Source: Akkermansia sp. | GTDB lineage: Bacteria > Verrucomicrobiota > Verrucomicrobiia > Verrucomicrobiales > Akkermansiaceae | Assembly (NCBI GenBank): GCA_030536145.1 | Contig: JAUNQN010000004.1 | Location: 34,239-98,238 of the forward strand | Length of the DNA stretch: 64,000 nucleotides | Reading direction: 5' to 3' | Shown here: positions 9,520-56,250 of the stretch, in pieces | Position numbering within the stretch: the first letter of the stretch is position 1 | Layout of the letters: each line of letters opens with the position of its first letter | Program-made: the position numbers and the translations under genes | The notes under the pieces: generated by a model | Database searches by the model: none | Seen by the model: the letters and a program-made list of their open reading frames with translations, nothing else | What the model was told of the DNA's origin: nothing

Positions 9520-9525
9520 GGGCTC

Positions 9526-11675: not shown

Positions 11676-11692
11676 GGTATCCCGGTAAGCGG

Positions 11693-22828: not shown

Positions 22829-22936
22829 GATGCTTGTATCTTGTGTAAGTGTTGTTTCTGAATTGAAGGCGAGGAGAAGGGGCAAAAGGCTCCGGACGCG
22901 GCAAAACGAATAGTCGTGCTCCTCTAACGGGTAGAG

Positions 22937-22957
22937 TACAGCATTCCCAATGCTGTA
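22937..22957. promoter_or_regulatory. perfect palindrome TACAGCATT-ccc-AATGCTGTA upstream of the PATR adhesin gene
   Basis: 9-bp arms read directly from the sequence, 109 nt upstream of the ATG at 22828. Its right arm plus spacer forms a 13-bp inverted repeat with 23092-23104. Confidence 0.5.
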
Positions 22958-23091
22958 GATCAAAACCGCGCCGTAGGTCGTTTGTTATCAAGAAGTAGCG
23001 TTTTTGTCCGGTGCGTCTTTCTGCGCTGGTCGGCAGGGGCTCACCTCCTCTAACTCAAGAAAAATCAATCTTTCTAACATTTAGACTTGAC

Positions 23092-23112
23092 TACAGCATT
23101 GGGAAAGCTGTA
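23092..23112. promoter_or_regulatory. second copy of the TACAGCATT motif (TACAGC-N9-GCTGTA)
   Basis: TACAGCATTGGGA is the exact reverse complement of 22945-22957. The -35-like TTGACT at 23087-23092 overlaps its first base. Confidence 0.45.
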
Positions 23113-23182
23113 TGACACAATGGAGTGCCGGGAGGGTGGCATGTTTTTAATGATAACGCAGGTTTCACTGGAAGTTGCCTTG

Positions 23183-23212
23183 TAAAATCCGGGAAAGGAG
23201 GCACCTTTCCCG
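23183..23212 (-). terminator. putative terminator after the IdeS-like gene pair
   Basis: 10-bp stem CCGGGAAAGG/CCTTTCCCGG (23188-23212), followed on the minus strand by ATTTT. Confidence 0.45.
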
Positions 23213-23351
23213 GCTCATTCAGCAGGAAATTATCGACTTGGCCCGGCAGGAAGGGCAGAGGCAGGGGGCACTTTCCCGGGAGAAGCGGAAAGCGTGCGCG
23301 TAATGCCCGGCTTATTTATTGTAAAAATTCCAAAACGTGATGGTTCGTCAC

Positions 23352-39768: not shown

Positions 39769-40115
39769 TGCGGCTGACGGGTGGCGGGTTGTGCTGCACC
39801 ACGTCCGCCGTCAGGGTGGGGTTCCCGGGTTGGGTGGTGCACCCCGCCGGTTCCGCGGGCTGACGCGCCGTGGCTCCGGCCACCCCGCCGTTCGCCCGTC
39901 TCCGCTTCGCTTCCGCTTTCTCTGCGATACGCATCGTTCGGAGAAATCGGCACATTGGTAAGACTCAGCCAATCTTTATAGGATTGGGATACCTGTTTGC
40001 CTTGCGGCAGAGCCGTGCGGTGCCCCGCAAAAAAAAGGAACAGTCCCGTTTTTTTGCCTTGAGTTCTCGTGAAAAGGATTGTATCTTGAGGAAAAGATTT
40101 TTCACATTTTACACC

Positions 40116-43100
40116 ATGAACGAATATTTTTCCGTATCTCCGTCGGCTCCTGAACCGGATTCCACTTTCTCCAAGGTATACAACCGCCTGGATATGCGGT
40201 GCTACCGGGGTTACGGCGTGCCGCGCGATGCCGCTGTGGCTAGTTCCGCAGGGTGGTATGCCCGTGCGGCGGGGCAGGGGGATGTGATGGCCCAGGTTAC
40301 CCTGGCAGAGTGCTATGCAGCGGGGCAGGGTGTGGAGAAGGATGCCGCGCGGGCGGCAGAATGGTACGGAAAGGCAGCGGAGCAGGGGCATGCCGGGGCG
40401 CAGTATGCCATAGGCGATTGCTATGCCCGCGGCTTGGGTGTGGAGCAGGATGCCGCGAGAGCTGCGGAGTGGTACGCCAAATCCGCCATGCAGGGGGATG
40501 CCCGTGCGCAGTTTGCCATGGGAGAGTGCTGCAGCTCCGGGCAGGGAACCGCCTGTGACTTGGTTCAGGCGGCAGACTGGTATGCCAGGTCTGCCGCGCA
40601 GGGGTATGCCCCGGCGCAGTATGCCCTGGGTGCCATTTGCTTGGAGGGCCGTGGCCTGCCGCAGGAGCCTGCCAGGGCGGTGGAATACCTGGTCAAGGCG
40701 GCGGAGCAGGGTTATGCGCCTGCGCAGTACCGCCTGGGCTGGTGCTGTGTGGAGGGCGTGGGGCGGGAGGCGGATGCCGCTGCGGGGGCAGACTGGTACG
40801 CCCGCGCCGCCGCCCAGGGCCATGCCAAGGCGGAGAACCGCCTGGGCCAGTGCTGCTATTATGGCATAGGCATGCCGCAGGATATGGAGAAGGCTGCGGA
40901 GTGGTACGCAAAGGCGGCAGGGCAAGGGCTTGCCGAGGCCTGCTTCAACCTGGGCCGCTGCTATGCCTACGGTGAGGGCGTGGCCCGTGATGCCGCCCGT
41001 GCCGTGGAGTGGTACGCCAAGTCTGCGGAGCAGGGCTATGCCCTGGCTCAGTATGCCCTGGGCCGGTGCTATGAGACGGGCGAGGGCGTGGCCGCCGATG
41101 CCGGGCAGGCCGTGGATTGGTACACGAAGGCCGCGGAGCAGGGAGATGCCCCCGCCCAGTGCAGGCTGGGGCTCTGCTATGCAGAGGGGCGCGGCGTGGA
41201 GCAGGATGCCGCCCGTGCCGTGGAATGGTATACGCGTGCTGCGGAGCAGGAGTATCCCAAGGCGCAATACGCCCTGGCCACCGCCTGTGCGCAGGGTGAC
41301 CTGCTGCCCCCGGATATGGAACAGGCGGTGTCATGGTACATGAAGGCCGCGGACCTGGGTTACGCGGAGGCCCAGTATGCGCTGGGCGCCTGCTATGCAG
41401 AGGGCGTGTGCGTACCGCAGGATTTGGTCATGGCCATGAATTGGTACACGAAGGCGGCAGAGCAGGGGCATGCCCGCGCCCAGTACACCCTGGGCCGCTG
41501 CTGTATGACCGGGCTGGGCGTGGAGCATGATGCCGCCAAGGCCGCCGGCTGGTTTGAGCGCGCGGCCGTGCAGGGCTATGCCAAGGCGCAGAACCGCCTG
41601 GGGCTCTGCTACCATTCCGGGTACGGCGTGCCGCTGGATATTGCCCGTGCCGCAGAGTGGTATGCCAAGGCTGCGGAGCAGGGCGATGCGGAGGCCCAGT
41701 ACAACCTGGGCCGCTGCTGCATGTACGGCGAGGGTGTGCCCGCCGATGCCGCTCGCGCCGTGGACTTGTACAGCCGGGCCGCCGGGCAGGGCTATGCCCT
41801 GGCCCAGCTGGCCCTGGGGGTGTGCTATGAGCGCGGTGACGGTGTGGAGCCGGATGCCGTGAAGGCGGCAGGATATTACGTGCAGGCGGCTGCCCAGGGG
41901 GTGGCGCGCGCCCAGTTCTGCCTGGGCATGTGCTACAAGGACGGGCGCGGCGTGGAGCAGAGCGACGAGAAGGCCGCAGAGCTGTACAGGCAGGCGGCAG
42001 AGGGCGGCTATGCGCGCGCCCAGTACACCCTGGGCAGGTGCTATATCAAGGGGGAGCTGTTCCCCGTGGATGCATTCCTTTCCGCAGACTGGTACCGGCG
42101 CGCGGCGGAGCAGGGCTTTGCCGATGCCCAGTACGAGCTGGGCTTGTGCTATGCCAATGGCGGCGCGCTGCCGCGCAACTGCATCCAGGCCGTGGAGTGG
42201 TACACCAAGGCGGCGGAGCAGGGGCATGTGGATGCCCAGTACGCCCTGGCCGCCTGCTGGCACCAGGGGCTGGGAACGCCGCGCGACAGCGAGAAGGCGG
42301 TGGAATGGTACACCCGCGCCGCAGAGCAGGGGCACGCCCGCGCCCAGTATGCGCTGGGTACCTGCTATGCCGGGGGCGACGGCGTGACGCAGGACCCCGC
42401 CCGCGCCGCAGAGTGGTATGCTATCTCCGCAGGCTGGGGCTATGCCCGCGCCCAGACCGCCATGGGCCGCTGCTGCCTGGACGGCGCCGGCGTGGAGCAG
42501 GATGCCGCCAAGGCGATGGAGTGGTTCCAGAAAGCCGCGGAGCAGGATTTCCCGGAGGCCCAGTACCAGCTCGGTCTTTGCTTCTTCCAAGGCATAGGCG
42601 TGGAGCAGGATGCCGCCCGTGCCGCAGAGTGGTATGCCAGGGCCGCGGAGCTGGGGCATGCAGAGGCCCAGTTCTGCATAGGCCGCTGCTGCTATTACGG
42701 GGAAGGCGTGGGGCAGGACTATGCCAAGGCTGCGGAATGGTACACCAGGGCAGCCGAGCAGGGAGTGCTCCTGGCCCAGTTCGCCCTCGGCGTGAGCTAT
42801 GAGCAGGGCCTCGGCATGGAGCCCGATGCCGCCCAGGCCGCCTTCTGGTATTCCCGTGCCGCAGAGCAGGGATACGCCCGAGCGCAGTTCAACCTGGCCC
42901 TTTGCTATGAGCAGGGGCGCGGTGTTTTCCCCAATCCATCACAGGCCGTGGCCTGGTACCTGAAAGCCGCAGGGCAGGATTACGCCCGAGCCCAGTACAA
43001 TCTGGGGCTCTGCTACGGCAAGGGAAACGGGGTCACGCAGGATGCCGCCGCCGCCGTGAAATGGTACACCAAGGCTGCGGAACAGGGCAACGCGGAGGCA

Positions 43101-43532
43101 CAGCTCACCCTGGGCTACTGTTATGCAGAGGGCGAGGGCGTGCCGCAAGACCCCGCCAAGGCCGTGGAATGCTACACACTGGCGGCGGAACAGGGCAATG
43201 CAGAGGCCCAGCTGGCCCTGGCCTGCTGCTACGCAGACGGCGATGGTACGCCCAAGGACCCCGCCAAGGCCGTGGAATGGTATACCAGGGCCGCGGAGCA
43301 GGGCAATGCCTGGGCCCAGTTTGTCCTGGGGGTCTGCCATGAGCAGGGCGTGCTGGTGGACCGGGATGCCGCCAAGGCTGCGGAGTGGTATGCCAAGGCT
43401 GCGGAGCAGGGGCATGCCGATGCCCAGCAGAGCCTGGCCCGCTGCTATGCGGAGGGCAACGGCGTGCCCCAAGATGCCGCCAAGGCCGCCGAATGGGCCG
43501 CCAAGGCCATCGCCGCACCCGCAGGGACCTGA
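40116..43532 (+). CDS. giant Sel1-repeat protein (30 tandem 36-aa repeats), no signal peptide seen
   Basis: 1138 aa from MNEYFSVSPSAPEP. I counted 30 consecutive units of the form A.(E/D)WY.KAAEQG.A.AQ..LG.CY..G.GV.QD...A. Confidence 0.88.
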   Translation: MNEYFSVSPSAPEPDSTFSKVYNRLDMRCYRGYGVPRDAAVASSAGWYARAAGQGDVMAQVTLAECYAAGQGVEKDAARAAEWYGKAAEQGHAGAQYAIGDCYARGLGVEQDAARAAEWYAKSAMQGDARAQFAMGECCSSGQGTACDLVQAADWYARSAAQGYAPAQYALGAICLEGRGLPQEPARAVEYLVKAAEQGYAPAQYRLGWCCVEGVGREADAAAGADWYARAAAQGHAKAENRLGQCCYYGIGMPQDMEKAAEWYAKAAGQGLAEACFNLGRCYAYGEGVARDAARAVEWYAKSAEQGYALAQYALGRCYETGEGVAADAGQAVDWYTKAAEQGDAPAQCRLGLCYAEGRGVEQDAARAVEWYTRAAEQEYPKAQYALATACAQGDLLPPDMEQAVSWYMKAADLGYAEAQYALGACYAEGVCVPQDLVMAMNWYTKAAEQGHARAQYTLGRCCMTGLGVEHDAAKAAGWFERAAVQGYAKAQNRLGLCYHSGYGVPLDIARAAEWYAKAAEQGDAEAQYNLGRCCMYGEGVPADAARAVDLYSRAAGQGYALAQLALGVCYERGDGVEPDAVKAAGYYVQAAAQGVARAQFCLGMCYKDGRGVEQSDEKAAELYRQAAEGGYARAQYTLGRCYIKGELFPVDAFLSADWYRRAAEQGFADAQYELGLCYANGGALPRNCIQAVEWYTKAAEQGHVDAQYALAACWHQGLGTPRDSEKAVEWYTRAAEQGHARAQYALGTCYAGGDGVTQDPARAAEWYAISAGWGYARAQTAMGRCCLDGAGVEQDAAKAMEWFQKAAEQDFPEAQYQLGLCFFQGIGVEQDAARAAEWYARAAELGHAEAQFCIGRCCYYGEGVGQDYAKAAEWYTRAAEQGVLLAQFALGVSYEQGLGMEPDAAQAAFWYSRAAEQGYARAQFNLALCYEQGRGVFPNPSQAVAWYLKAAGQDYARAQYNLGLCYGKGNGVTQDAAAAVKWYTKAAEQGNAEAQLTLGYCYAEGEGVPQDPAKAVECYTLAAEQGNAEAQLALACCYADGDGTPKDPAKAVEWYTRAAEQGNAWAQFVLGVCHEQGVLVDRDAAKAAEWYAKAAEQGHADAQQSLARCYAEGNGVPQDAAKAAEWAAKAIAAPAGT

Positions 43533-43613: not shown

Positions 43614-46600
43614 TTATCGGCGCCTGCGGCGGGCGGCCAGCGCGGCCAGGGCCAGCAAGGAGAACGTGCCCGTGGCGGGTTCCGGAACGTTGATTTCCGG
43701 GGTGTCTGCCCCCGCCGCGCCAAAGTACACTACGCCGCTCTTGAGTTTCAGCTCGCTGATGGTTACCTCTGTTTCACCCACGTTGCGCACCATGGTGGCA
43801 TTGGAGCTGTTCGAGATGTTCACGTCGTCGCCGAAGTTCACTGCCACGCAGTCTCCATCGCCTACCTGCATGCCGTCAAACATACTGGCATCGAACTTTA
43901 CGTTGGCCATGGTCAGTTCACAGTTGATCATGTTGCGCACGTCGAAGATGTAGCAGGTCCCCGTTTCCGTGTCCTGCGTGGTGTAGGCGGTCCCGGTGAG
44001 GTCGATGACCACGTTGCTGAGCGTGATGGCATGGCTGCCCGTGGAGATGCTCACATCTGCCGCCATGCCCACGTTTTCCACGCACAGGTTGTCATTGGAG
44101 ACGATATCCACGCCGCGCAGCATGCTTTCCACCGGGTTGGCGTCTGATGCCCCGGAGATGAGGTTGTAGGAAATAGTCAGTTTTTCCAGCTCGGCAGCCT
44201 TTGCCTCCCGGTTGGTGATGGACATGGCGGAGCTGCCCTGAGTGAATCTCACGCCGGTGGCGGTACTCTTGCTCTCCGCCTTGTCCGTGCCCAGCACCAC
44301 CTTGCCGGCAGAGCTGTCCAGCTTGCTGTCCTTGAACTCTATCTTCTTGCCCGCCTCCGCTGCCAGGTACAGGGTGCCCTTGTTCACCACGGCTGCCTTT
44401 CCGTCCGTGTTGCTGCCGAAGGATACGTCCCCGTTCCACGCAAATTCCGCCGTGGCTCCCTCTGCGTTGTACAGGTCGTTGCCCTCCTGGGCTGAGTTGC
44501 CGGAGAAGGTGACCTCCTTGTTGCCGGAGACGGAAAGGGCGCTTTCATTGTAGATGGCGCCGCCCTGCGCGGTTTTGTCTGCCGTGACGGAGTTGCCGGT
44601 GAAGCGGACGACCTGGTTCTCTCCCGAAATCTCCAAGGATGATTCCTGGGCCAGGTGGATGGCTCCGCCGCGTGCCACGCCTTCATGAACGGGGGTGGAG
44701 GCCGTGGCGGAGTTGCCGGTGAAGATTACTTCCCGGTTGTCGCAGATGCTGCCTTGTGCTCCGTATCTGCCGTTTTCGCCAACGTTCATGGTATCCAGGA
44801 ACAGGGCACCGCCGCGGGCAAAGGCGGCAGTGTCGTTTGTGCTGTCCTGCGGGTCTGTGAATTTCGCGGTGGCACTGTTGGCATGGAACACCACACTATC
44901 GTTCCCTTGGATGCTCATGGATGGGATGGCGTAGAGGAAAGAACCATCGGACTGGAGGTAGCTTGTACTCAGGCCGTCAAACTTGACAGCCAATGCACCG
45001 CCGGAGGCATGGCTGCCCTGGATGTATTCTTTTAGCCTGGTGTCGTAGTAGTAGTTTCCGGGGTTGTTGACCTCCACGGAGTTGTTGCTGAACTCTATAT
45101 TGTGGTTCCTGTCCAGCTCGATATACATGGCTGCCAATCCGCCGCCGCAGCCGAACACGTCCTTGCCGCTCACGGAGTTGCCGGAGAAGGTGATGCCGGC
45201 ATTGTCGTTCATGTAGGCGCGTTCCAGGGCATAGGCTCCGCCGCCGTGTACATGGGTGCCCTCTACCCGGTTGTTTGAGATGAGGACTTGCCCGCTGGAC
45301 TTGATGGAGAAGGAGTCCTCCGAGCCAATGCCTCCGCCGCCGTATGCGGAGAATTTTCCCCAATCGTCCGCCATTGTGTTGGAGATGGTTGCTTGGTTGC
45401 CGCTGATATTTACATCACCGCCGCCCTTGATTTCCACATAGGATTTGGCGGAAATGCCGCCACCGGTGCCGATGTACTTGGCATTGGTGACGGAGACCTC
45501 TCCGCCGTGGATATAGAGCTGCCCCTCTGCCACCACCCCCCCGGCCTGCCAGCGCCCGCCGCCTGCTACCTCCAGCCCGCCGTTCAGCAGAGCCATGGCA
45601 CCGTCTGCCACTTTGAACATGGGGGAAAGCGGGTCGGCTGTGTAGGAAACGGAAATCTTGGCATCCCTTTCCGTGGTAAACACAATGGCTGCAGGTGTTT
45701 GGGTCCCCTCGTACGTGCCGCCACCTATGCACAGTGTGGAATCGGTAAAGGTGGCAGATTGGGTGAGGGTGCAGGTTTGGTTCACTTGGTCGCTGATACT
45801 TGCTACACTGGTTTGCGATGCTCTCTCAGCCACCTTTTTCCCTGTGGTGTGTGATGTTTCGGGTGTATCGATGTAGGAGACATCGTAAAGCATGTAATTG
45901 TACATGGAATACCAGCTGCCGTACCGATCGTTGCCAATCGTGACTGTGCCATCGGCCTCCTCTTTCAAGGTGAGAATGATGGCTCCATACTGCTTGTCAT
46001 CGGAATCCGTGACAATCAGGCCGGTGATATTGCCCTTGTCATCGGTCTCATACCCCCAGCAGGTAATGGCATGCATGCCTGAGTAGTACCTGTCGTTATG
46101 GCATACTGACAAGTTGACCGCCTGCCCTTGGGTGGAGAATGCCTTTTGCAGGGTGCTGTCGATGATAGACTTGTTGGTCTTCAGCCCCTTGTCGATAAAC
46201 AGGGAATAGAATGAAGCGTCTTGCAATCCGGAGGCATAGGCAGGCTGGGTACTGCCGAAGATTTTCGTGTAATAGCCGCCGGAATTTTCATCCTTGAGGG
46301 AGCTGCCATAGGGTACGTATCTCCCGCCTGTCATCCACCAGGAGTATGCACTGTACACATAGCCGCTGCTTTCCGTCCAGCTTGCCAACAACTCGTCGTA
46401 CACTGCCAGGGAATCCGTGCCTGCAGGTTCTGTGTAGCCTGTTGTCACGCCCATGGCCGGGTCCGTTCCCTGGTCGCGGAAGTTGTAATAGGTATCCTGC
46501 CAGTACTGTATGACGTTGGAGGCTGCCGCAGCCCAACACATCACATAATCGTTCCGGTATCCTTCTGCTTTATACGCAGGAAGCGAAGCATCAGCGCTGT

Positions 46601-46748
46601 ACGTCAGTTTGCCGTTGTCATACACATTGCCGGAGACAATGGTGCAGTCTGCCTTTGCCGCAGGGGAGAGCGCGGCGAGCAGGAGTGCCATGGAAAGGGA
46701 ACAAATCTTCACACCCGTGTTTATAGCTGTTATAGGGTAGGATGTCAA
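43614..46748 (-). CDS. IdeS/Mac-like cysteine protease domain + long beta-helix repeat region + PEP-CTERM anchor
   Basis: 1044 aa. It has YVMCWAAAASNVIQYWQ and MHAITCWGYETDDKGNITGLIVTDSDD (Asp at His+22 and His+24). The C-terminus is VPEPATGTFSLLALAALAARRRRR. The start is uncertain (46748, or the Met at 46691). Confidence 0.78.
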   Translation of the reverse strand: MTSYPITAINTGVKICSLSMALLLAALSPAAKADCTIVSGNVYDNGKLTYSADASLPAYKAEGYRNDYVMCWAAAASNVIQYWQDTYYNFRDQGTDPAMGVTTGYTEPAGTDSLAVYDELLASWTESSGYVYSAYSWWMTGGRYVPYGSSLKDENSGGYYTKIFGSTQPAYASGLQDASFYSLFIDKGLKTNKSIIDSTLQKAFSTQGQAVNLSVCHNDRYYSGMHAITCWGYETDDKGNITGLIVTDSDDKQYGAIILTLKEEADGTVTIGNDRYGSWYSMYNYMLYDVSYIDTPETSHTTGKKVAERASQTSVASISDQVNQTCTLTQSATFTDSTLCIGGGTYEGTQTPAAIVFTTERDAKISVSYTADPLSPMFKVADGAMALLNGGLEVAGGGRWQAGGVVAEGQLYIHGGEVSVTNAKYIGTGGGISAKSYVEIKGGGDVNISGNQATISNTMADDWGKFSAYGGGGIGSEDSFSIKSSGQVLISNNRVEGTHVHGGGAYALERAYMNDNAGITFSGNSVSGKDVFGCGGGLAAMYIELDRNHNIEFSNNSVEVNNPGNYYYDTRLKEYIQGSHASGGALAVKFDGLSTSYLQSDGSFLYAIPSMSIQGNDSVVFHANSATAKFTDPQDSTNDTAAFARGGALFLDTMNVGENGRYGAQGSICDNREVIFTGNSATASTPVHEGVARGGAIHLAQESSLEISGENQVVRFTGNSVTADKTAQGGAIYNESALSVSGNKEVTFSGNSAQEGNDLYNAEGATAEFAWNGDVSFGSNTDGKAAVVNKGTLYLAAEAGKKIEFKDSKLDSSAGKVVLGTDKAESKSTATGVRFTQGSSAMSITNREAKAAELEKLTISYNLISGASDANPVESMLRGVDIVSNDNLCVENVGMAADVSISTGSHAITLSNVVIDLTGTAYTTQDTETGTCYIFDVRNMINCELTMANVKFDASMFDGMQVGDGDCVAVNFGDDVNISNSSNATMVRNVGETEVTISELKLKSGVVYFGAAGADTPEINVPEPATGTFSLLALAALAARRRRR

Positions 46749-46961
46749 GTGCGCGTTTCCGGGGGATAAATCGGAGGTTTGCAGGGGCGTTTTATGGGTA
46801 AGTTCCTAGTTTTCAGGGTAATGTGTAAAATGGGAAAGCGCCGGGGGAGGAAAATCTGAAAGTGCGTATCCAATATGCACGGTATGTGTAAGTCTTTGAT
46901 AGTAAATATCCCCAAAGGGTGGTTTTGCGGGAAATTGAAAAAAACGGAAAAAGATGGCCGA

Positions 46962-48017
46962 ATGGAGTCAACTACCGTGAATGAAAGAGAAAAGGACTAT
47001 GAGCAGCTGCTGCGCGGCACAGGGCTGACCCTGATGGAATGTGTGTGCCTGGGCAAGAGCCTGAGTGAACAGAGGGCGGAGCTGGATCTGCCGCCGGAGC
47101 TGAGCCTGGTGCGTGATGCCAACCTGTACGGCAACGCGCTGCGGCAGTGGGTGGAGATGCAGCAGAGCCGGAGTTTCCGGGAGGTGGCGCGGCTGCATGT
47201 GGAAGACAAGCGGAACAAGCGCAGCCGCACGCGCAGGGAGTGCAGCGAGATGCTGGCGCGGATGATGCGGGAGGTCCCCGGTCTGGCGGGGCAGATGGTA
47301 CGGAGTATAACCACGGAGTATTGCCGCCAGGTGATAGGGCGGGTGTTTGAGACCCAGGCCATGCGGAACAAGGCCCGGCGTATCCTGCACAATTTTTTCG
47401 AGACCTGCCGGATTAACGGCTGGTGCGGGAAAAACCCCGTGGCGGATATACACTACGCCGCCGCAGAGGAGAGTACCATCCATGTGCTCAGCCTGCCGCA
47501 GATAGGGAGATTGTTGCAAACGGTGTACAAGCCGGAGCACCGGGATTGTGCCGCAGCCGTGGGGCTGATGCTGTGGTGTGGCATACGCCCGTATGAGGTG
47601 GCGCGCCTGCAGTGGGGTGATGTGGACCTGGCGGAGCGTGTGGTGTTTGTAAGCCCGCGGCACAGCAAGACCGGCGGTGCGCGGCAGGTGCCCCTGCGCG
47701 CGCCGGTGCTGCGGCTGCTGCGCCGGGAATCTGCCGCCCGTGCGGCGGGGGGCAGGATTGTGCCGCGCGACTGGACCCGGCGCTGGAAACGCCTGCGCCG
47801 GGCGGCAGGGTTTGCCGTGTGGCGGGCGGATACGCTGCGCCACACATTCGCCAGCTACCATTTCAAATTCTTCCAGGATGCCGGGCAGTTGCAGTGGGAG
47901 ATGGGCCATACCAGTGCCGCCCAGCTGCGCAGCCGCTACCTGAACATGCGCGGTTTTACCCGTGCGGAGGCTGCGCGGTTCTGGCACCTCCGCCCGGAGC
48001 TGGAGCCTGCGGGGTAA
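46962..48017 (+). CDS. tyrosine recombinase / phage-type integrase
   Basis: About 351 aa from MESTTVNERE. It has GIRPYEVARLQWGDVD (box I Arg), HSKTGGARQVPL, LRHTFASY, GH and RSRYLN (catalytic Tyr region). Confidence 0.85.
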   Translation: MESTTVNEREKDYEQLLRGTGLTLMECVCLGKSLSEQRAELDLPPELSLVRDANLYGNALRQWVEMQQSRSFREVARLHVEDKRNKRSRTRRECSEMLARMMREVPGLAGQMVRSITTEYCRQVIGRVFETQAMRNKARRILHNFFETCRINGWCGKNPVADIHYAAAEESTIHVLSLPQIGRLLQTVYKPEHRDCAAAVGLMLWCGIRPYEVARLQWGDVDLAERVVFVSPRHSKTGGARQVPLRAPVLRLLRRESAARAAGGRIVPRDWTRRWKRLRRAAGFAVWRADTLRHTFASYHFKFFQDAGQLQWEMGHTSAAQLRSRYLNMRGFTRAEAARFWHLRPELEPAG

Positions 48018-48021: not shown

Positions 48022-48047
48022 ATACGCGCCCGGTATGGGGCGCGTAT
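48022..48047. terminator. hairpin between convergent integrase and HU genes
   Basis: 10-bp stem ATACGCGCCC/GGGCGCGTAT with a 6-nt loop. Confidence 0.55.
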
Positions 48048-48453: not shown

Positions 48454-49035
48454 TCAGGGGGAGAAAGCCAGGGCACCCATGAATCCCGGTGCCGGGGAAA
48501 AGAGCTCCACCTGCGGCGCATCCGGGAATTGCGGGACAATGCGGCCTGCATCATACAGGAATGGGAACCGCCCCTGAGCGTGCCAGATGCCGGAGCCGGC
48601 GTGCTTGACCAGGGCCTCTGCGGCGCACCAGCATGCATAGAACTCCTGCTGCGGGCAGCCGCGCTCCATGAAGGCGGCCAGCTGCGGTGCGGCCATGAAC
48701 CGCTCCGCCAGGGCGGCAAAGGGGCGCGGGCGCATGTACTCCACATCCACGCCTATTTCCCGGTGGTGGAAAGCCAGGCACAGGCAATCACGGGAGTGGC
48801 TCATGTTGAACGGCTGCGGGGGGAAGTGCGGCTTGCCGTTCTCCCCGTATTGCAGGCGTATCCCCTGCACCTGCAGCCCGGTGAGCCGTGCCAGCTCCCG
48901 CCGCAGGAGCATGCGGCGTGCCAGGTAGGGCGCGCCGTGGCGGGCGTATGCCTCCTGCTCATGCGCATCCAGCAGGGCGGCATCCGCCGGGGCTGCGGGG
49001 GGGATTTGGCTGCTGTTGTAAACCAGGTAGTGCAT
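48454..49035 (-). CDS. Sfp/EntD-type 4'-phosphopantetheinyl transferase
   Basis: 193 aa. It has GKPHF, FNMSHSRD, IGVDVE and WCAAEALVKH motifs. Its start overlaps the upstream stop (TGATG). Confidence 0.85.
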   Translation of the reverse strand: MHYLVYNSSQIPPAAPADAALLDAHEQEAYARHGAPYLARRMLLRRELARLTGLQVQGIRLQYGENGKPHFPPQPFNMSHSRDCLCLAFHHREIGVDVEYMRPRPFAALAERFMAAPQLAAFMERGCPQQEFYACWCAAEALVKHAGSGIWHAQGRFPFLYDAGRIVPQFPDAPQVELFSPAPGFMGALAFSP

Positions 49036-49532
49036 CAGAGCGGAAGGATGGCGGCGGTGTTGGCCGCCGTATCATACACGGCCAGGGAGGGGTGGCCGCC
49101 GCGGCCCAGGATTTCCCCGGGATTGCACACCAGGGTGCTGCCGCTGCAGCGGTTGAAGGCCTGGTGGGTGTGGCCGAAGAATACGGCATCATACCTGCCG
49201 AACATGAGCGCCTTTTCCGCCTGGGCGGGCAGGTGGGTGAAATAGACCCGGCGCCCGCCCAGCTCCAGCTCCCCGGAGAAGCCGTGCAGCGTGGTGCAGG
49301 GGTAGGATTCCGCCTGGGTGCGGAAAGAGTCGTGCTCAAACTCGTTGTTGCCGAACACCAGGTCCAGCTGCAAATGGGCGGGCCAGGCGGCACGCAGGGC
49401 GGCAAAGGTGGCGCTGCGCACCATGTCCCCCATGCAGAGCATGCGGGTGCAGCCCTGCTGCAGGGCCAGCTCCACGGCGCGCTGCATGTTGGCCGTGTTG
49501 TCGTGTATATCTGATACCAGTGCTGCGCGCAT
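49035..49532 (-). CDS. YfcE/MJ0936-type metallophosphoesterase
   Basis: 165 aa. It has SDIHDN, MGDMV, GNNEFE and FGHTHQ motifs. The start is 6 nt after the upstream stop. Confidence 0.85.
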   Translation of the reverse strand: MRAALVSDIHDNTANMQRAVELALQQGCTRMLCMGDMVRSATFAALRAAWPAHLQLDLVFGNNEFEHDSFRTQAESYPCTTLHGFSGELELGGRRVYFTHLPAQAEKALMFGRYDAVFFGHTHQAFNRCSGSTLVCNPGEILGRGGHPSLAVYDTAANTAAILPL

Positions 49533-49538: not shown

Positions 49539-51689
49539 CTATTTCTTCTTTTCAGCGGTAAAGAGGGGGGAGAAGGGGATGGCACCCTGCATCTCCTCCC
49601 CGTGGCGGGCGGTGCTCAGCCCCTCTTCGGTCAGGAACCACACCATCTGCCTGCCCTGCGGGCGCAGGCTGTAGCAGGGGCTGCCGTCCGGCTGCACGAA
49701 ACCGCAGAAACGCGGGCTGATATCCATGAACCCGGTAAAGTTCTCTGCCATTTCCCCGCTGTAGTCCGCGCGGGTGTGCTTGCCGAACCATTCTGCAAAG
49801 GCCTTCTCCGCGCGCTCGTGCGCGGGGTCTGCATGCAGCCAGCAGTTGCCGTCCAGCTCCACGCCGCAGCGCTTGCGCAGCTGGTCGAACTCACGCATAT
49901 CCGCCTGCAGGGAGGGGGAGTAGGGCAGGCCGGTGAGCATGCGCTGCCCGCTGCCTTTCACCATGTCCAGCAGCTTGCCGTACACATAGGCGCGCGCCAG
50001 CGCCGGGCATTCCGGGGCCTGGCAGCGTATCACGGCGGCCAGGGCCTTGCCGTAGTTCAGCCCGGCATAGAATTCCGTGCGGTCCTGCGTGTGCAGGCAG
50101 GCGGCCAGGGGGGAGGGGTCTATGCGGCGGGAGCTCACCCAGTGCGGGTCCGGCCAGGTGGTGGCGGCATCGCTGCCGGTGGGCTTGCCGGGGTCCAGGT
50201 TGGAACGCAGGAAATGCACCCGGCCGTCCTTGACCTCCGGTGCGGCCTCGGAGAAGAAGGTGTCTCCCTTCTCATTGCTGATGGCGTACAGCGGGGTGGA
50301 GAGGGCGGTGCAGCCCAGCAGGTCGTCCGCCGCATGCGTTTCCGCCGTGGTGGCGGGAAACTCCGGGGAGATGGCGGATTCCCCCTGCACCAGGGTCCTG
50401 CGGGCGGCGGCCAGCAGGTTGTGGGGAATGTTCTTGCCGCTGCTGATGAGCTCCCGCAGCATGGTGCCGTGGTCCGGCAGGGTGGCGGCGGTCTCCTTGG
50501 CGGCGGCCAGGGCGGTGTAGTATTTTGGGGAAACCAGGGCCAGCTGGTGGCGGTAGCTGCCGTAGTCCTGCGCAGCGGCCAGCCTGGCCAGGCTCTCCTG
50601 CAGGCGGCGGTTCTCCCGCAGCATGGCGTTCACTTTCTTGAGCGCCCGTTGCGCGGGTTCCACCAGCGCCTCGTCCTCCATGCCGGTGCTGTGGGAATCT
50701 GCAAAAATCAGGCAGCGTTCCATCAGCTCGGAGCGCAGGCTCTCCAGCTTCTGCTCGTCCGCCTTCAGGTCGTTCCCCGGCTCCACCATGGAGGGCAGGG
50801 GCTCTGCCAGCTTGCGCATCAGCTGCATGCGCTGGGCGGCCAGCTGCTGCTTTTCCGCCTCGCAGAACTTGGCCCAGTCCTTGCGGAGCTTGTCGGCGGA
50901 CTTGGGCAGGGCATCCAGGCTCTGCTCAATCTCCATGCGGCGTATGGGACCCATCTCTGCCACGGAAAGCTTTCCGGCGCCGATGCGCTGCATCAGCCCG
51001 GCAAGCTCCTTCATGGTGGCTTCCTCCCTGCGGATGCGGGTGCGTGCCGCGTTTACCAGGAAATCCATGCGCTTGCAGAAGAAGCGGTTGAATCCCGTAT
51101 CCACCGCTTTCAGGCAGGCGGCCAGCTCCGGGGTATCCCCCGTGCGCAGGCTGGCTTGCAGGCGGTCTGCGCTCTGCTCCGCATGGCGGCCCAGCAGCAC
51201 CCAGGTGAGCACCAGCAGCGCGGCCGCCCCTGCGGCTATGCCGCCCGCCACCACCTGGCGGCGCATGGGCTTGGCACGGCGTGCCAGCTCACGCTCCAGC
51301 GCTTGGCTGTACTGGCGGTAGGTGCGCTGCCCCTCTGCATCCAGCAGGTGCCCGGCCAGTTTTTCCTTGCGGGTGATTTCCTTGCGGGCGCGCTTGAGCC
51401 TGGCCCGTTTCCACCCGACAAAGAGCTGGGGATCCTGCCGGAAGGCCTGCAGGGCATCCGTGAGCCGTTCCAGGTTCTGGTCATCCTTTGCCTGCTCCTT
51501 GCGGTGGAAAATCGCCAGGGTCTGGAGCGGCTGGCCGGAATCCAGGCGCTCCAGTTCTGCGCGCGCCACCGCGTGGTTGGGGTTCTTGCGCAGGATGTCT
51601 ATCAGCACGTTGCGGGCGGCTGCCATGTCCCCCTGCGCGGCGTATTTGCGCAGGGCCTGAAAGGCGGGGTCTGCTTTTCTTCTGCTCAT
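49539..51689 (-). CDS. large single-pass membrane protein with TPR-like N-terminus (GTPase-operon gene 3)
   Basis: About 716 aa from MSRRKADPAFQ. It has a TPR-like AAQGDMAAARNVLIDILRKNPNHAVARAEL segment and a TM helix VVAGGIAAGAAALLVLTWVLLG after RRAKPMRR. About 540 aa follow the TM. Its ATG overlaps the upstream stop (ATGA at 51686-51689). Confidence 0.7.
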   Translation of the reverse strand: MSRRKADPAFQALRKYAAQGDMAAARNVLIDILRKNPNHAVARAELERLDSGQPLQTLAIFHRKEQAKDDQNLERLTDALQAFRQDPQLFVGWKRARLKRARKEITRKEKLAGHLLDAEGQRTYRQYSQALERELARRAKPMRRQVVAGGIAAGAAALLVLTWVLLGRHAEQSADRLQASLRTGDTPELAACLKAVDTGFNRFFCKRMDFLVNAARTRIRREEATMKELAGLMQRIGAGKLSVAEMGPIRRMEIEQSLDALPKSADKLRKDWAKFCEAEKQQLAAQRMQLMRKLAEPLPSMVEPGNDLKADEQKLESLRSELMERCLIFADSHSTGMEDEALVEPAQRALKKVNAMLRENRRLQESLARLAAAQDYGSYRHQLALVSPKYYTALAAAKETAATLPDHGTMLRELISSGKNIPHNLLAAARRTLVQGESAISPEFPATTAETHAADDLLGCTALSTPLYAISNEKGDTFFSEAAPEVKDGRVHFLRSNLDPGKPTGSDAATTWPDPHWVSSRRIDPSPLAACLHTQDRTEFYAGLNYGKALAAVIRCQAPECPALARAYVYGKLLDMVKGSGQRMLTGLPYSPSLQADMREFDQLRKRCGVELDGNCWLHADPAHERAEKAFAEWFGKHTRADYSGEMAENFTGFMDISPRFCGFVQPDGSPCYSLRPQGRQMVWFLTEEGLSTARHGEEMQGAIPFSPLFTAEKKK

Positions 51690-54445
51690 TCGGAAAGGGC
51701 GGGTTGCAGCTGGAAGCACCATTTCAAGCCTCCCTCCTCAGGGGGCTCCAGGCGCTCCAGCACCAGTTTGTAGCTCACATGCGGTGCCGGGGTGCCCTGC
51801 CTGCCCTTGGCGGCGGTGCGCTCGCAGAAATCCCGCAGCTCGTCCTCCAGTGCGGCGCAGATGGCGCGGCGCAGCATGGCGCGCTCCTCCGGCCGGGCCA
51901 GCATGCGGCACACGGCGGCGCAGCGCGCCGGGGCATCCGCGCTGGTGCCGTGCGCCTGGTCTACCGTGAGCAGCAGCTCCGGCTGGGCGGCCAGCAGCAG
52001 GCTCATCTCCGCGTTCAGCACGGGGTTGGCCAGCATGCGCACGTACGCCTTGCTCATTTCCTCCATGTGGCCCGCATCTGCGGTGGTGTCCATCTCGCAG
52101 GTCATGTTGTACAGGGTGGCGCGCAGGGGAATGCCCGTGCCGTAGTCTGCCCCGGCCAAGCGGTTGAAGAGCGCATCCACCAGCTGGCGCATGTAGGGCG
52201 CGGCGTTGATACGGCAGTTGAAGATGGTGGTGTCTCCCTCCACGGAGCTGCTGTCGCACACCCATTTGGAGGAGACATTGGCGGCGGGCGTGAGGGCCTG
52301 GAGCCTGTTCTCACCCACCACCACGGGGAGCTGCAGGGTGAAGGCGGTGCCGGCCACGGCGGCCAGGGCGGGCAGGCGGGTCAGGCGCTCCGGGGTGAGC
52401 CGCAGGCCGGGCATGCCGTGCAGCCCGCGCAGCCCGGGTATGGCCGTGGAGCTGCGCTGCACGTCCGCCTCAGTGATATGCAGGTCCAGCGGCGCCAGGG
52501 ACGGGCGGTCGTTCAGCGGAATCTCGATGTGCGGTGTCAGCACCATCGTGTGGGCCACGTTGTCATGGTCTGCATCTGCGGTGATACAGAGCACGGCGGG
52601 CCTGCCGCCGCTGGTGATGGAGCGCAGGATACCCGCATCCGCCTCTATCACGATGGGCGGGGTCAGGTGGCTGGGGCGCCCGTTCTCCTCCAGGGAGAGG
52701 GTGACGCGGCTTTCCGAATCCTGGTGCAGGCGCAGGCTCTGGCCGCCCGGCTGCAGGCGGATGCGCTGGGTGGTGTCCAGCTTGCCTGTGGGGGAGAAGG
52801 TGGCTACCACCAGCTCACCGGAGGTGATGACCTGTGAGAGGGAGATGTGCTTGCAAACCTCCGGCAGCGGTGAGCCGGAGATGGCGGTCTGCACCTTGCG
52901 CTCCGCCGCAGGCACCGCGGGGCGCGCGGGTTCCTCCTGCTTGGCGATGGTCACCGTGTCTGCACCGGGGAGCTGCGGGAAGATGTTGGCAAAGTACGGG
53001 GAGCGGGAGCGCAGCAGGGCATCCCGCAGCAGCGGGCGCTCCGCCAGGAACGTGTCCCACTCGTCCGCCTCTGCGCGGGAAAGGTGCTCCGTGCCGCCGC
53101 GTGCCATGGCCTGCTGCATGTACAGGGCCACCAGCGCACCGGGGGCTATGCCCAGCATCTCCGCGCAGTCTGCCATGCGGCGCAGGTTGCCCACGCGGTG
53201 GTCTGCCGTGCGCAGCAGGCGGCAGCACTCCCGGATGGCCCCTGATGTCACGTCGGACATCCTGCCGTTCCCCTGCGCCGCTTGGGCGGAGATGGCATCC
53301 AGGCGGGCGGCGGTGTAGGCGGCGTCATACGGGCGCTCTGCCAGCCCGGTAAGCTCTGCAATGAGTGCGCCCGGCCCGGCGGGTTCCACGGTGGTGGCGG
53401 CAGCGGCGGGCTTGCCCTTGGCTCCGTGTTGCACGCCCAGCACCCAGCCTGCCGCGCAGAGCACGCAGGCGGCGGAGGCGGTGATGGCCACCATGCGGCG
53501 TTGCCTGCGGCGGCGGTATTCCTTGGGGCAGGGTGGCTTTTCCGCCAGGGGCGGGGCGGTTTCCTTGGGCGTGGCGGTGGTGCCGCAGCTGCAGGGGACC
53601 GGGGTGCCGGGCTGCTCCTTGGCCGTATCCCGGCTTTCCGGGCCGGGCTGGGGCTTGGTGTCCACGGGCATTTCCGGCAGCTCCATGGCGGGGCTTATCT
53701 CCAGCATGGGGTGGCTGGCGCGCCGGGCACGCTCTATCAGGCGGTAGTTGTCCGTGGCGCAGACAATACGGTTGGTATCCGCAAAGGAATCACAGTCCTC
53801 CCCGCAGGTGGTGAAGGTGTGCCCCCAGCCGCGCAGGTGGGTGAGCCAGTCCGCCTCATGCAGCAGGGCCAGTATATCCAGCCCGGCGGTGCCGGGTGCC
53901 ACCAGCACCAGGCTGTCGTTCTCATACGGGGGCGTGCAGAAGGCGCGCGCGTTGCTCTTGTGCCCGGTCAGGCGCTTCCATGCCGGCTGGGTGGAGGCAT
54001 CCGGTATGTCATCCGTGCAGAAGGCGGGGGCAGCGGTCAGCACGCGCGGCGGCCCCTCCCAGCGCTGCTGCCAGAGCCCGCGGTTCTCCATGGCCAGCAT
54101 GATTCCGGCCGGCGTGGGGCGGGCGGGATTGCGGCACAGGGCGCACACCTCGTCGTTCCCCAGGATCAGGTGGTGGGCTATGTGGCAGTTGCGGCCGCTG
54201 TAGTCCGCCCCGGCCATCTGCACGCGCGTCATCACGTGGTAGGTGGTGCCGCGGTATTCCAGCACGCGGTAGGAATACTGCGGCCCCGGCAGGGACTGGG
54301 CGGATTTCTCACGGAACCCGCTCAGGGCGGTCAGCTTGTCGCACAGGATGCGTGATATCCCCTCGCTGCGGGCCACGGTTCCGTAACCCGGCTGGTCGCA
54401 GTCCAGTAGGTGCTTGGCGCTGGTATGGATGAGCTGCAGGGGCAT
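51686..54445 (-). CDS. large single-pass membrane protein with GAP1-like (GTPase-associated protein) N-terminal domain (GTPase-operon gene 2)
   Basis: 919 aa. The N-terminus is MPLQLIHTSAKHLLDCDQPGYGTVARSEGIS. The TM helix MVAITASAACVLCAAGWVLGV follows RRRRQRR. About 580 aa follow the TM, with no motif I recognise. Confidence 0.72.
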   Translation of the reverse strand: MPLQLIHTSAKHLLDCDQPGYGTVARSEGISRILCDKLTALSGFREKSAQSLPGPQYSYRVLEYRGTTYHVMTRVQMAGADYSGRNCHIAHHLILGNDEVCALCRNPARPTPAGIMLAMENRGLWQQRWEGPPRVLTAAPAFCTDDIPDASTQPAWKRLTGHKSNARAFCTPPYENDSLVLVAPGTAGLDILALLHEADWLTHLRGWGHTFTTCGEDCDSFADTNRIVCATDNYRLIERARRASHPMLEISPAMELPEMPVDTKPQPGPESRDTAKEQPGTPVPCSCGTTATPKETAPPLAEKPPCPKEYRRRRQRRMVAITASAACVLCAAGWVLGVQHGAKGKPAAAATTVEPAGPGALIAELTGLAERPYDAAYTAARLDAISAQAAQGNGRMSDVTSGAIRECCRLLRTADHRVGNLRRMADCAEMLGIAPGALVALYMQQAMARGGTEHLSRAEADEWDTFLAERPLLRDALLRSRSPYFANIFPQLPGADTVTIAKQEEPARPAVPAAERKVQTAISGSPLPEVCKHISLSQVITSGELVVATFSPTGKLDTTQRIRLQPGGQSLRLHQDSESRVTLSLEENGRPSHLTPPIVIEADAGILRSITSGGRPAVLCITADADHDNVAHTMVLTPHIEIPLNDRPSLAPLDLHITEADVQRSSTAIPGLRGLHGMPGLRLTPERLTRLPALAAVAGTAFTLQLPVVVGENRLQALTPAANVSSKWVCDSSSVEGDTTIFNCRINAAPYMRQLVDALFNRLAGADYGTGIPLRATLYNMTCEMDTTADAGHMEEMSKAYVRMLANPVLNAEMSLLLAAQPELLLTVDQAHGTSADAPARCAAVCRMLARPEERAMLRRAICAALEDELRDFCERTAAKGRQGTPAPHVSYKLVLERLEPPEEGGLKWCFQLQPALSE

Positions 54446-54461: not shown

Positions 54462-56198
54462 TCAGCTGTTCTGTGAGCAGGGGAGCAGTGAGGGAGCCAG
54501 GCAGCTCAGTGCCCACAGCGTGGAATCCGTGACGCGGAACGGGTGTACCTGGCCGGATGCCGGGCCGATGAGGCGGCTGCCGCTGTGCTCGTCCGTGAAC
54601 TCCACCGGGGATTCTCCCAGGGAGGAGGCGGCAAAGTAGCGCACGTTGGAGGAGATGGCCTCCGCATTCGTGCAGATGTGCGGGGCTATGTTGAAGATGA
54701 ACTGGCGCAGGCGCGCGGAGTTTGCCTGGATAAGCTCCGGCATGAACATGCCGTTGCGCGTGGCGGGCAGCAGCGGCTCCGGCCCCAGCAGGTGGGCCCA
54801 GGTATCGCTCTTGCCGATGATGACGGCCAGCGGTACGTCCAGCTTCTTGCCCGGCGGCAGGTTCAGCTTGGTGCGCACGCGCATCTCAGATTCCGCCAGC
54901 AGCAGGGCCTGCCGGCCCGGGGGATGCAGGTTCAGGCGCAGCTGCGGGTCCTCGTTGTCATGCAGCAGCTTGCGGAACCCGGGATTGGCCGTGGGGTCGA
55001 AGAGGAACAGGATGGCATCCGCCACGCTCAGGTGGGCGCCGCCGGGGTTGATTTCAGAGTCCCGCCCCGGCTGGAAATCCTCTCCCGCATTGTCGTACAG
55101 CACAATGGAGTGGGTCTCGGAATCCTTGTTCAGGTTGTAGATGAAGGGGCGGGGCATGTTGGCCTGCACGCCGTGGCGCCATACCTTGTGGTACAGGCGG
55201 CCCTGCAGCTGGGTCTTGCCGATGTAGGCCTCCTGCGGGGTCTGGGCGGAGAACAGGCGCATGCGCATGTCGTTCAGCGGCTCGTTCATCACCGGGTCCG
55301 CATCACGGAACGGCAGGCCGAAATCCCGCGGGAACTCCAGCTCCAGCTCCCGCACCAGGGAGGTCAGGAAATACGACTTGCCCGCCGCCGGCACACCCAC
55401 CAGGGAGATGAGGTGCTGCCTGGTCTGCGTGAAGAAGGGCGGCAGTTTCTCATGGCAGTGCGGGCAGGCAAAATCCGGGCAGGGGGAGCCTTTGGCATCC
55501 ACCGGCAGGCCCTGGCAGTTGCGCTCCGTGGGCTTGAACCGCAGCATGGCGTCCTCCCCCAGCACGGAGTCCCCGCACAGGGCGGGGTGCACGGCTATGG
55601 CCAGCTCCTGGCCGGCGTAGAAATGCTCCCAGCAGTTCGGGCAGCGCAGCAACTGCCCGTCATCCCCGTCAGGCGCCCCGGCGGCAGCATCCTTCTGCGC
55701 GGCAAACACCGCCACCGCTATCAGGTCCTTCAGGTAGAACGCGCAGTTGTCCAGCCCCTGGAAAGTGGCCAGCATCTCCCCCGGGAACTCGCGGGAGGCC
55801 TCCGGCATATCCCCCAGGGAATACGGACCGTACCACTCGTCCTTCTCCGGGCTGTACAGGAACCACACGTTCGGGTCGTACTGGTCGAACGCAGGCTTGT
55901 TGGCCGCATCCCCGTACCAGCACACAAAACACCCGCAATCCAGCACAAAGAGGTACATGGTCTCCTTGCGTATCACCACGTCCGTGTTCATGGGTATGCC
56001 GTTCAGGGAGTATTTCTCCACATGCCCGTGAGGGAAAAAGCGGCAGGTCTCGTCCCGCTGCGCAAAGGAACCGCCGTTCTCCGCCTGCATGCGGATGCGG
56101 AAGGTGTTCTTTTCCCCCGCGCCGATGGTCATGAATACGCCGTCGGATGACCAGAGCTTGGCGGAAAGGCTGTCGTAGATGAAAAGTTGGTTGTTCAT
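54462..56198 (-). CDS. FHA-like / split zinc-ribbon / P-loop GTPase (GTPase-operon gene 1)
   Basis: 578 aa from MNNQLFIYDS, with an AGGAGA SD 8 nt upstream. G1 is GVPAAGKSY, G3 is LYDNAGED and the G4-like motif is IIGKSD. It has CPNCW...CPHCH cysteine pairs and an N-terminal roughly 95-aa FHA-like segment. Confidence 0.8.
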   Translation of the reverse strand: MNNQLFIYDSLSAKLWSSDGVFMTIGAGEKNTFRIRMQAENGGSFAQRDETCRFFPHGHVEKYSLNGIPMNTDVVIRKETMYLFVLDCGCFVCWYGDAANKPAFDQYDPNVWFLYSPEKDEWYGPYSLGDMPEASREFPGEMLATFQGLDNCAFYLKDLIAVAVFAAQKDAAAGAPDGDDGQLLRCPNCWEHFYAGQELAIAVHPALCGDSVLGEDAMLRFKPTERNCQGLPVDAKGSPCPDFACPHCHEKLPPFFTQTRQHLISLVGVPAAGKSYFLTSLVRELELEFPRDFGLPFRDADPVMNEPLNDMRMRLFSAQTPQEAYIGKTQLQGRLYHKVWRHGVQANMPRPFIYNLNKDSETHSIVLYDNAGEDFQPGRDSEINPGGAHLSVADAILFLFDPTANPGFRKLLHDNEDPQLRLNLHPPGRQALLLAESEMRVRTKLNLPPGKKLDVPLAVIIGKSDTWAHLLGPEPLLPATRNGMFMPELIQANSARLRQFIFNIAPHICTNAEAISSNVRYFAASSLGESPVEFTDEHSGSRLIGPASGQVHPFRVTDSTLWALSCLAPSLLPCSQNS

Positions 56199-56221: not shown

Positions 56222-56250
56222 ATCTTACCCCAAATGCCCCCGTGAGTCAA
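56222..56250 (-). promoter_or_regulatory. promoter of the GTPase operon (TTGACT-N17-TAAGAT)
   Basis: Minus strand: -35 TTGACT (56250-56245) and -10 TAAGAT (56227-56222). The predicted leader is about 17-20 nt and contains AGGAGA. Confidence 0.6.

Follow-up and report, generated by a model that had tools for sequence, protein, structure and literature searches.

The DO-GTPases and their partner GAP1 (GTPase-associated protein 1), together with the N1 and N2 subtypes of the latter, were defined by Kaur, Burroughs, Iyer and Aravind (eLife 2020; PMC7159879), and our full-text literature search brought up no further publication on DO-GTPases or GAP1-N1/N2. In these systems the GTPase usually carries N-terminal zinc ribbons (ZnR), a glutamate in the Walker-B motif defines the GTPase family, and GAP1-C has been proposed as an effector-docking domain (PMC7159879). 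Variable components that bear transmembrane (TM) segments are common in GAP1-N2 systems, TM-fused GAP1 proteins have already been described, and verrucomicrobia are among the carriers (PMC7159879). The published variable components include SLATT, tubulin, HSP70, kinase/PP2C, FGS, GYF-trypsin and others, and a protein whose FNIII repeats evolve rapidly is found in the published GAP1-N2 systems (PMC7159879). Calcineurin-type phosphoesterases are the commonest effectors of the GAP1-N1 systems; the GAP1-N2 systems were proposed to be conflict-associated, with a non-enzymatic variable module beside GAP1 predicted to be the sensor (PMC7159879). Here we analyse a locus of this kind in a 64,000-nucleotide stretch of the Akkermansia sp. 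contig JAUNQN010000004.1 (the window), where a gene at 51686-54445 encodes a 919-residue protein, hereafter GAP1. We are somewhat inclined to regard this protein as the membrane-spanning component of a three-gene GAP1-N2-type DO-GTPase system that acts as a resident switch between the envelope and the cytoplasm.

The GAP1 open reading frame (ORF) runs on the minus strand from an ATG start. The original prediction, made from the sequence of the window, had given exactly these coordinates and left the strand unstated; the N-terminus it quoted, MPLQLIHTSAKHLLDCDQPGYGTVARSEGIS, is present as given, as are the Pro-rich linker (approximately residues 255-313) and the RRRRQRR motif followed by MVAITASAACVLCAAGWVLGV (residues 311-338). 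The local DNA is 66-69% G+C, and numerous long spurious ORFs overlie the region in other frames and on the opposite strand. The ORF is nonetheless a genuine gene and no chance product of a 66% G+C genome, because it has 78 full-length homologues (mostly 917-954 residues, a few shorter or longer), is 98% identical in a strain-level relative (L085) and is under purifying selection in every segment, with ratios of non-synonymous to synonymous substitution rates (dN/dS) well below 1.

A GAP1-type N-terminus had been proposed, and hmmscan returned as its single Pfam match GAP1-N2 (PF20013) at residues 4-100, with an E-value of 6.8e-11 and 42.8 bits against a curated cut-off of 24. All 38 homologues scanned matched the same model (best E 4.6e-18), and PF20013 is annotated on every GAP1 homologue found here in the public protein collection. 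The original prediction had pointed to the GAP1 models as a group; GAP1-N2 was recovered, but GAP1-M and GAP1-C were not. A direct match to GAP1-M (PF20014) was absent from the 919-residue protein even at E-values up to 10, and GAP1-C gave none at that threshold or in the 38 homologues. Using hhalign, residues 1-216 of the GAP1 family profile aligned with residues 1-209 of P0079, a canonical GAP1 with Pfam GAP1-N2 at 1-130 and GAP1-M at 166-215, at a probability of 98.3% (E 2.4e-14). Since this alignment runs through the GAP1-M of P0079, residues ~131-250 can be read as a probable, divergent GAP1-M. The alignment ends at residue 216, the linker and TM helix follow directly after GAP1-M, and GAP1-C is missing from the protein.

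Conservation in GAP1 is concentrated in the first 250 residues. In the N2 part (residues 1-130; 54056-54445, minus strand) the invariant positions are G20, Y21, V24, A25, Y59, H70, D81, R85, H91, H92, T111, P112, G114, W125 and W129, and W156, L194, E197, W207 and R226 are invariant further along the N-module, which continues through the putative GAP1-M (residues 131-252; 53690-54055, minus strand). An AlphaFold2 model of the whole protein, built on a 78-sequence alignment, reached a mean predicted local distance difference test (pLDDT) of 83.9 and placed residues 1-250 in a two-domain N-module with pLDDT above 90, and residues 1-262 modelled alone gave a pLDDT of 94.2 and a predicted TM-score (pTM) of 0.91. 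The N2 part is modelled in the order strand-strand-helix-strand-strand-strand-helix-helix, which is the order of longin domains, and the M part is alpha/beta. Both domains are predicted to be cytoplasmic.

The module is followed by a disordered, Pro-rich linker that ends in RRRRQRR (residues 253-313; 53507-53689, minus strand), with pLDDT below 50 for residues 263-315. This is the fastest-changing segment of the protein, with seven non-synonymous and no synonymous differences between the window and the strain-level relative. A single TM helix (residues 314-338; 53432-53506, minus strand) is predicted from hydrophobicity, charge bias and AlphaFold, where residues 314-336 form an isolated helix flanked by disorder. 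A single strongly hydrophobic 19-mer occurs at approximately residues 290-370 in 72 of 79 homologues, and in 62 of these 72 the 15 residues on its N-terminal side are richer in lysine and arginine than those on its C-terminal side (8 against 2 in the window). By the positive-inside rule the protein would be orientated N-in/C-out, with the GAP1-N2/M module in the cytoplasm and the C-terminal 580 residues in the periplasm. The bitopic layout of the original prediction agrees with all three of these observations.

The ectodomain was modelled confidently, with pLDDT mostly above 90. The model shows a helical bundle (residues 358-488; 52982-53374), a beta-rich region that may comprise two beta-sandwich-like domains (residues 517-747; 52205-52897), and a C-terminal helical domain (749-882) with a closing beta-hairpin (892-915; together 51701-52201), all encoded on the minus strand and predicted to be periplasmic. 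These approximately 580 residues had been called unassignable, and this description held in our searches: there was no match in Pfam (E up to 10, including 38 homologues), NCBIfam or PADLOC, and a profile search of GAP1 against PDB sequences returned noise alone for this part. Foldseek of the full model against the PDB gave for the ectodomain weak Ig-like pairs at probabilities below 0.1, these being the sole PDB neighbours of the beta-rich region, and a Foldseek search of viral structures gave nothing. A phmmer search of 1.84 billion representative proteins found 22 relatives, of similar size and matching at the same C-terminal positions, with the exception of a 487-residue protein that matches just after the TM helix. 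On these searches the ectodomain is private to the Akkermansia GAP1 family.

The gene adjoining GAP1 encodes, as had been expected, a GTPase, which we assign to the DO-GTPase2 family. It occupies 54462-56198 on the minus strand (578 residues; likely start ATG at 56198, with AGGAG 9 nt upstream) and ends 16 nt upstream of GAP1. The protein scores 29.7 bits against Pfam DO-GTPase2 (PF19993; cut-off 27), and all 26 homologues match. Its predicted layout comprises a divergent FHA domain (approximately residues 1-95), a small W..Y..W.GP domain, a zinc ribbon (~184-250) and a P-loop GTPase (~258-578). Invariant in the family alignment are GxPxxGKS, KT, D369-N-A-G-E373 with the Walker-B glutamate, and GKxD. 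Because the nucleotide-binding and Walker-B motifs are invariant, the GTPase looks active and is apparently catalytically intact. The zinc ribbon CPxCW...ACPHC is also invariant (CPNCW...ACPHC in the window); there is one clear ribbon, not two. The N-terminal ~90 residues (55914-56198, minus strand) match Pfam FHA in three of 26 homologues (best E 9.3e-6), another homologue matches the FHA-like Yop-YscD_cpl, and the family profile weakly matches the FHA structure 3hx1 (E 0.55), suggesting that this region is a divergent FHA domain. The next ~70 residues (W.Y......W.GP..L..L) are GYF-like by eye, and no Pfam model matched them. A promoter-like site (TTGACT-17-TAAGAT; 56222-56250, minus strand) lies in the divergent panC/GTPase intergenic region and is a consensus match alone, one found against 0.9 expected. 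Wherever a locus extends far enough for the gene to be seen (~84 loci), the GTPase gene immediately precedes GAP1. Strict adjacency, translational coupling and parallel conservation are the grounds on which a physical interaction of GAP1 with the GTPase may be proposed.

Downstream, the GAP1 stop codon overlaps the ATG of a third gene (gaATGAgc). This gene (49539-51689, minus strand) encodes a 716-residue bitopic protein, with a helical N-terminus predicted to be cytoplasmic, one TM segment (~51189-51254) and, on the presumed periplasmic side, a coiled coil followed by a globular C-terminus; it has no Pfam domain and no PDB relatives in a profile search. The third gene follows GAP1 in most Akkermansia loci. 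Given the 16-nt gap to the GTPase and the ATGA overlap with the third gene, translational coupling of the triad of FHA-ZnR-GTPase, GAP1 and bitopic protein is strongly supported. Few-base gaps after the triad lead to genes for a 165-residue calcineurin-like phosphoesterase (Metallophos_2) and a 4'-phosphopantetheinyl transferase (ACPS) at 48454-49532 on the minus strand. Both are syntenic in most Akkermansia loci, and Metallophos_2 is missing in one subclade. As calcineurin-type phosphoesterases are the commonest GAP1-N1 effectors, Metallophos_2 may by analogy be functionally linked to the triad. Downstream of the promoter region of the GTPase, no convincing terminator occurs before a strong hairpin with a 10-bp stem and a T-run at 48022-48047 (minus strand), after the Metallophos_2, ACPS and HU-like genes, and the transcription unit may therefore extend beyond the triad.

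How does this locus compare with the published systems? Like those described by Kaur and colleagues, it has GAP1-N2 followed by a probable GAP1-M in a gene directly downstream of a ZnR DO-GTPase with the Walker-B glutamate, the GAP1 is TM-fused, the operon contains a further TM-containing component, and the carrier is a verrucomicrobium. Unlike them, the Akkermansia GAP1 is without GAP1-C and its TM segment follows GAP1-M; no FNIII, cadherin, SLATT, tubulin, HSP70 or kinase/PP2C theme is detectable in the triad; there is a single GTPase gene, whose product has an FHA domain at its N-terminus, a feature absent from the paper's account of DO-GTPases; and a fixed location in the core genome and purifying selection take the place of island-like variability. 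Pfam found no FNIII match in the three triad proteins or their homologues, and searches of the operon and flanks with Pfam, NCBIfam and PADLOC detected none of the listed effector or accessory components. No defence model of PADLOC-DB 2.0 matched among the eight ORFs scanned, and NCBIfam returned nothing for the operon proteins. The original prediction had identified the family correctly, but the novelty it implied for a membrane-spanning GAP1 did not survive, because TM-fused GAP1-N2 proteins and verrucomicrobial carriers are already part of the published description (PMC7159879). A membrane-spanning GAP1-N2 beside a ZnR-DO-GTPase in a verrucomicrobium falls within that description, and what we report is a family assignment, not the discovery of a new kind. 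The longin/TagF-like fold, the FHA-bearing GTPase and a natural truncation series are new leads.

We scanned one genome per GTDB species, finding 96 loci and retaining 80. The majority come from metagenome-assembled genomes (MAGs) of Akkermansia or other Akkermansiaceae from animal guts. More distant GTPase-GAP1 pairs occur in Prosthecobacter, Brevifollis, Luteolibacter, Chthoniobacter, Terrimicrobiaceae and Opitutales, and the pair thus recurs across Verrucomicrobiota. In four of these loci, from Prosthecobacter and Brevifollis (L072-L074 and L078; locus positions 8619-12250), the GTPase and TM-bearing GAP1 are followed by a ~990-residue bitopic protein and a small two-TM DUF4190 protein; the distant verrucomicrobial GAP1 and partner proteins contained no informative domains. 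The triad has the same place on the chromosome in dozens of Akkermansia species, with panC and an ABC ATPase on one side and Metallophos_2 and ACPS on the other, and the triad of the window has the same flanks. dnaA lies a few kb beyond the Metallophos_2/ACPS flank in the one locus read that far. Because position and flanks are fixed, these observations indicate that the triad was inherited vertically and is not an island. A plasmid origin was also considered and rejected, there being no megablast match in PLSDB. The GTPase homologue clusters are small and consist of 'Akkermansia sp.' MAGs, with the name A. muciniphila only on mislabel-prone MAGs, and A. muciniphila proper probably lacks the system.

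We calculated identities to the window and dN/dS for each component, the latter over 45 pairs of species or strains at the level of gene segments. Identity was ~75% for PanC (dN/dS 0.06-0.11), ~83% for the ABC ATPase (0.00-0.03, with one pair at 0.11), ~70% for the GTPase (0.03-0.06), ~55% for the GAP1 N-module (0.05-0.14), ~24% for the GAP1 ectodomain (0.11-0.25) and ~30% for the third protein (0.05-0.18). The dN/dS of the GTPase is as low as that of the neighbouring housekeeping genes, and between the window and the strain-level relative the gene shows one non-synonymous and 22 synonymous differences. The ectodomain evolves fast, without gene-wide positive selection; the arms-race signature that such selection would leave was looked for and not seen at gene-segment level, with dN/dS at 0.11-0.27 in the 45 pairs.

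The species closest to the window, with a GTPase ~81% identical, carry natural truncations of GAP1, in which the ectodomain has been lost in steps. In three loci (L005, L006 and L011) the protein is 488 residues long and keeps the TM helix and periplasmic helical bundle, and in four others (L022, L024, L025 and L062) it is 266 residues long (locus positions 6001-6801) and consists of N2 and M with no TM helix. Each truncated form is present in several independent MAGs, and the third protein is kept in all of them. Conversely, an Akkermansia subclade of six loci (L027, L032-L034, L036 and L041) is without the third gene and has a full-length GAP1 followed directly by Metallophos_2. At least one large periplasmic part is thus retained at the loci seen, and none of the loci examined was without both the GAP1 ectodomain and the third protein. 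Homology between these two parts as the cause of their complementary loss was rejected, the hhalign probability being 1.8%.

In the switch that we favour, the cytoplasmic N2/M module, with its longin-like topology, probably binds the GTPase and would set its nucleotide state, acting in the manner of a GTPase-activating protein (GAP), a guanine nucleotide exchange factor (GEF) or a guanine nucleotide dissociation inhibitor (GDI). Candidates for the site of contact or catalysis are the GYG loop and the hairpin with the invariant D81-x-x-G-R85. Input would come through the TM helix from the periplasmic domains of GAP1 and the third protein, which would sense either a ligand in the periplasm or the condition of the envelope, and the output of the GTPase would be relayed through its FHA and zinc-ribbon domains. 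The conserved synteny, the housekeeping-low dN/dS of the GTPase and the lack of any match to an effector or defence model lead us towards resident signalling; together with the strong purifying selection they point to a resident switch rather than a mobile abortive-infection cassette. The retention of one or other large periplasmic part at all loci seen also favours this reading. Several observations weigh against this interpretation. GAP1-C, the proposed effector-docking domain, is absent and no FNIII protein was found by Pfam, so that an output arm is at most putative. The ectodomain is not essential to the core switch, because four species have the 266-residue GAP1. The likeness of the N-module to longins and TagF is weak globally, with TM-scores of 0.33-0.39 and the hhalign result given below. 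Finally, the system is accessory within the genus, as judged from the small GTPase clusters and their origin in Akkermansia sp. MAGs, and this fits a role in conflict equally well.

A canonical conflict system, directed against phage or other invaders, is a possibility that we consider unlikely but take seriously. Here a fast-evolving periplasmic sensor would signal through GAP1-N2/M to the DO-GTPase as a threshold switch, and an effector would then kill the cell or arrest its growth. The family was defined as conflict-associated, with a variable non-enzymatic module beside GAP1 as predicted sensor (PMC7159879), and the divergence of the ectodomain and third protein relative to the GTPase is what such a sensor might show. 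Parts of the system have been gained or lost between close species, and some Akkermansia lineages seem to lack it. Two candidates for the effector are the bitopic product of the third gene, which would act on the membrane, and the neighbouring phosphoesterase of the calcineurin type, which follows the triad in most loci. However, Metallophos_2 is absent from one triad-bearing subclade and is unlinked to the pair outside Akkermansia, and no known effector, effector-associated domain (EAD) or defence model was matched. The fixed position between housekeeping genes is not that of a defence island, and the ectodomain shows no positive selection at the resolution of gene segments.

The fold of the N-module leads to a further, more speculative proposal. 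A Foldseek search of the residue 1-262 model against the PDB gave one match below 1e-3, TagF of Acinetobacter baylyi (9t0n; E 3.3e-4, probability 0.99, ~308 columns), with TM-scores of 0.39 and 0.33 and a root-mean-square deviation of 10 Å. TagF (DUF2094, PF09867) represses type VI secretion post-translationally by binding the FHA protein Fha, and this binding requires its residues S79, D81 and R85 (PMC5995506), which makes the match suggestive. As with GAP1, the partner is an FHA-domain protein, Fha in the one case and presumably the FHA-bearing GTPase in the other; unlike GAP1, TagF is soluble and not linked to a GTPase. TagF proteins have the motif PSVDRVGR in our own 30-sequence alignment and GAP1-N2 has GADYSGR, with D81 and R85 invariant, and an invariant D-x-x-G-R is thus common to both when the motifs are compared as sequence, unaligned. 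Homology at the sequence level was rejected, because two profile-profile comparisons with hhalign gave a probability of 0.1%, and the shared D-x-x-G-R is on this evidence an unaligned coincidence. No PF09867 match was found by Pfam in the 919-residue protein or in 38 homologues.

The lower Foldseek neighbours were FLCN, FNIP2, DENND10 and the GATOR1/SEAC longins (probability 0.25-0.75), along with many PAS/LOV domains, which score similarly to the longins. The longin and longin-DENN regulators (FLCN-FNIP, C9orf72-SMCR8, GATOR1 Nprl2/3 and the DENN Rab-GEFs) resemble GAP1-N2 in having the longin order and then an alpha/beta domain, and resemble GAP1 in being dedicated to one GTPase partner. Unlike GAP1, whose partner is a large TRAFAC-class DO-GTPase, they act with Ras-like small GTPases. 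The matches themselves are of low probability and low TM-score with no sequence similarity, and an arginine finger in GAP1 is a candidate at most. The text of Kaur and colleagues does not mention TagF, longins, roadblock or DENN domains (PMC7159879), and Zhang et al. (2012) reported no bacterial DENN. A literature search for a link between DENN and TagF was discarded, its matches being merely author names. We treat the N-module as a longin/TagF-like GTPase regulator as a lead rather than a result. The fuller proposal is doubtful at present, namely that GAP1-N2/M is a bacterial longin-type, TagF-related regulator and the triad no immune system but a device, inherited vertically, for signalling across the inner membrane. 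In such a device the periplasmic domain would act through one TM helix on the longin-like module, which would in turn switch the FHA-bearing TRAFAC GTPase.

The longin-like topology of N2 also bears on a role in spatial organisation. MglB is a bacterial roadblock protein and is related to longins (PMC3521125, PMC12290439), and the GTPase could organise the cell or its cytoskeleton in the way MglA does with MglB, the ectodomain anchoring the GAP1-GTPase pair at a particular place in the envelope, for instance a pole, the septum or a structure of the cell wall. Vertical inheritance and strong conservation would suit such a role, but the neighbourhood contains no cytoskeletal gene, the ectodomain is dispensable in some species, and no peptidoglycan-binding or other anchoring domain was detectable by Pfam or Foldseek, making this explanation improbable. 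An artefact, whether a long ORF arisen by chance, two genes joined through a sequencing error or a hydrophobic stretch that fails to cross the membrane, is suggested by the many overlapping spurious ORFs but has a negligible chance of being correct given the homologues of the same length and layout in independent assemblies, the purifying selection in every segment, the confident AlphaFold model and the conserved position and charge bias of the TM helix.

Beyond the terminator the composition of the window changes. The stretch at 43614-48017 is ~58% G+C against ~65%, and carries a tyrosine integrase (46875-48017, plus strand) and a 1044-residue PEP-CTERM protein with Mac-1 (IdeS-like protease) and Chlam_PMP repeats (43614-46748, minus strand). 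It may be an integrated element beside the downstream flank of the triad; no tRNA was found near it, and its arrangement in L085 is the same as in the window. A second low-G+C stretch (55-57%) at 19550-24902 includes a 1137-residue ORF with no Pfam match and a 516-residue protein with a Mac-1 fragment. At 39870-43532 on the plus strand we observed a 1220-residue protein with 27 Sel1 repeats (Pfam E 1.4e-274).

The DO-GTPase/GAP1 class is known from one comparative-genomics paper (PMC7159879), and we found no experimental study of any member. The Akkermansia family comprises three compact genes, has no distracting effector domains and has a confidently modelled regulatory module. It also offers a natural 'deletion series', made up of relatives that have lost the ectodomain, half of it or the third protein. 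Being compact, well modelled and naturally dissected in this way, the family is a convenient entry point for testing how GAP1 acts on its GTPase. Should the longin-type proposal prove true, it would give the class a concrete biochemical mechanism, with D81 and R85 as testable catalytic or contact residues, and the device would parallel, in prokaryotes, the longin-GAP/GEF logic by which eukaryotes signal at membranes. These observations raise the question of whether some of the 'conflict' GTPase systems are resident envelope-signalling modules of gut Verrucomicrobiota.

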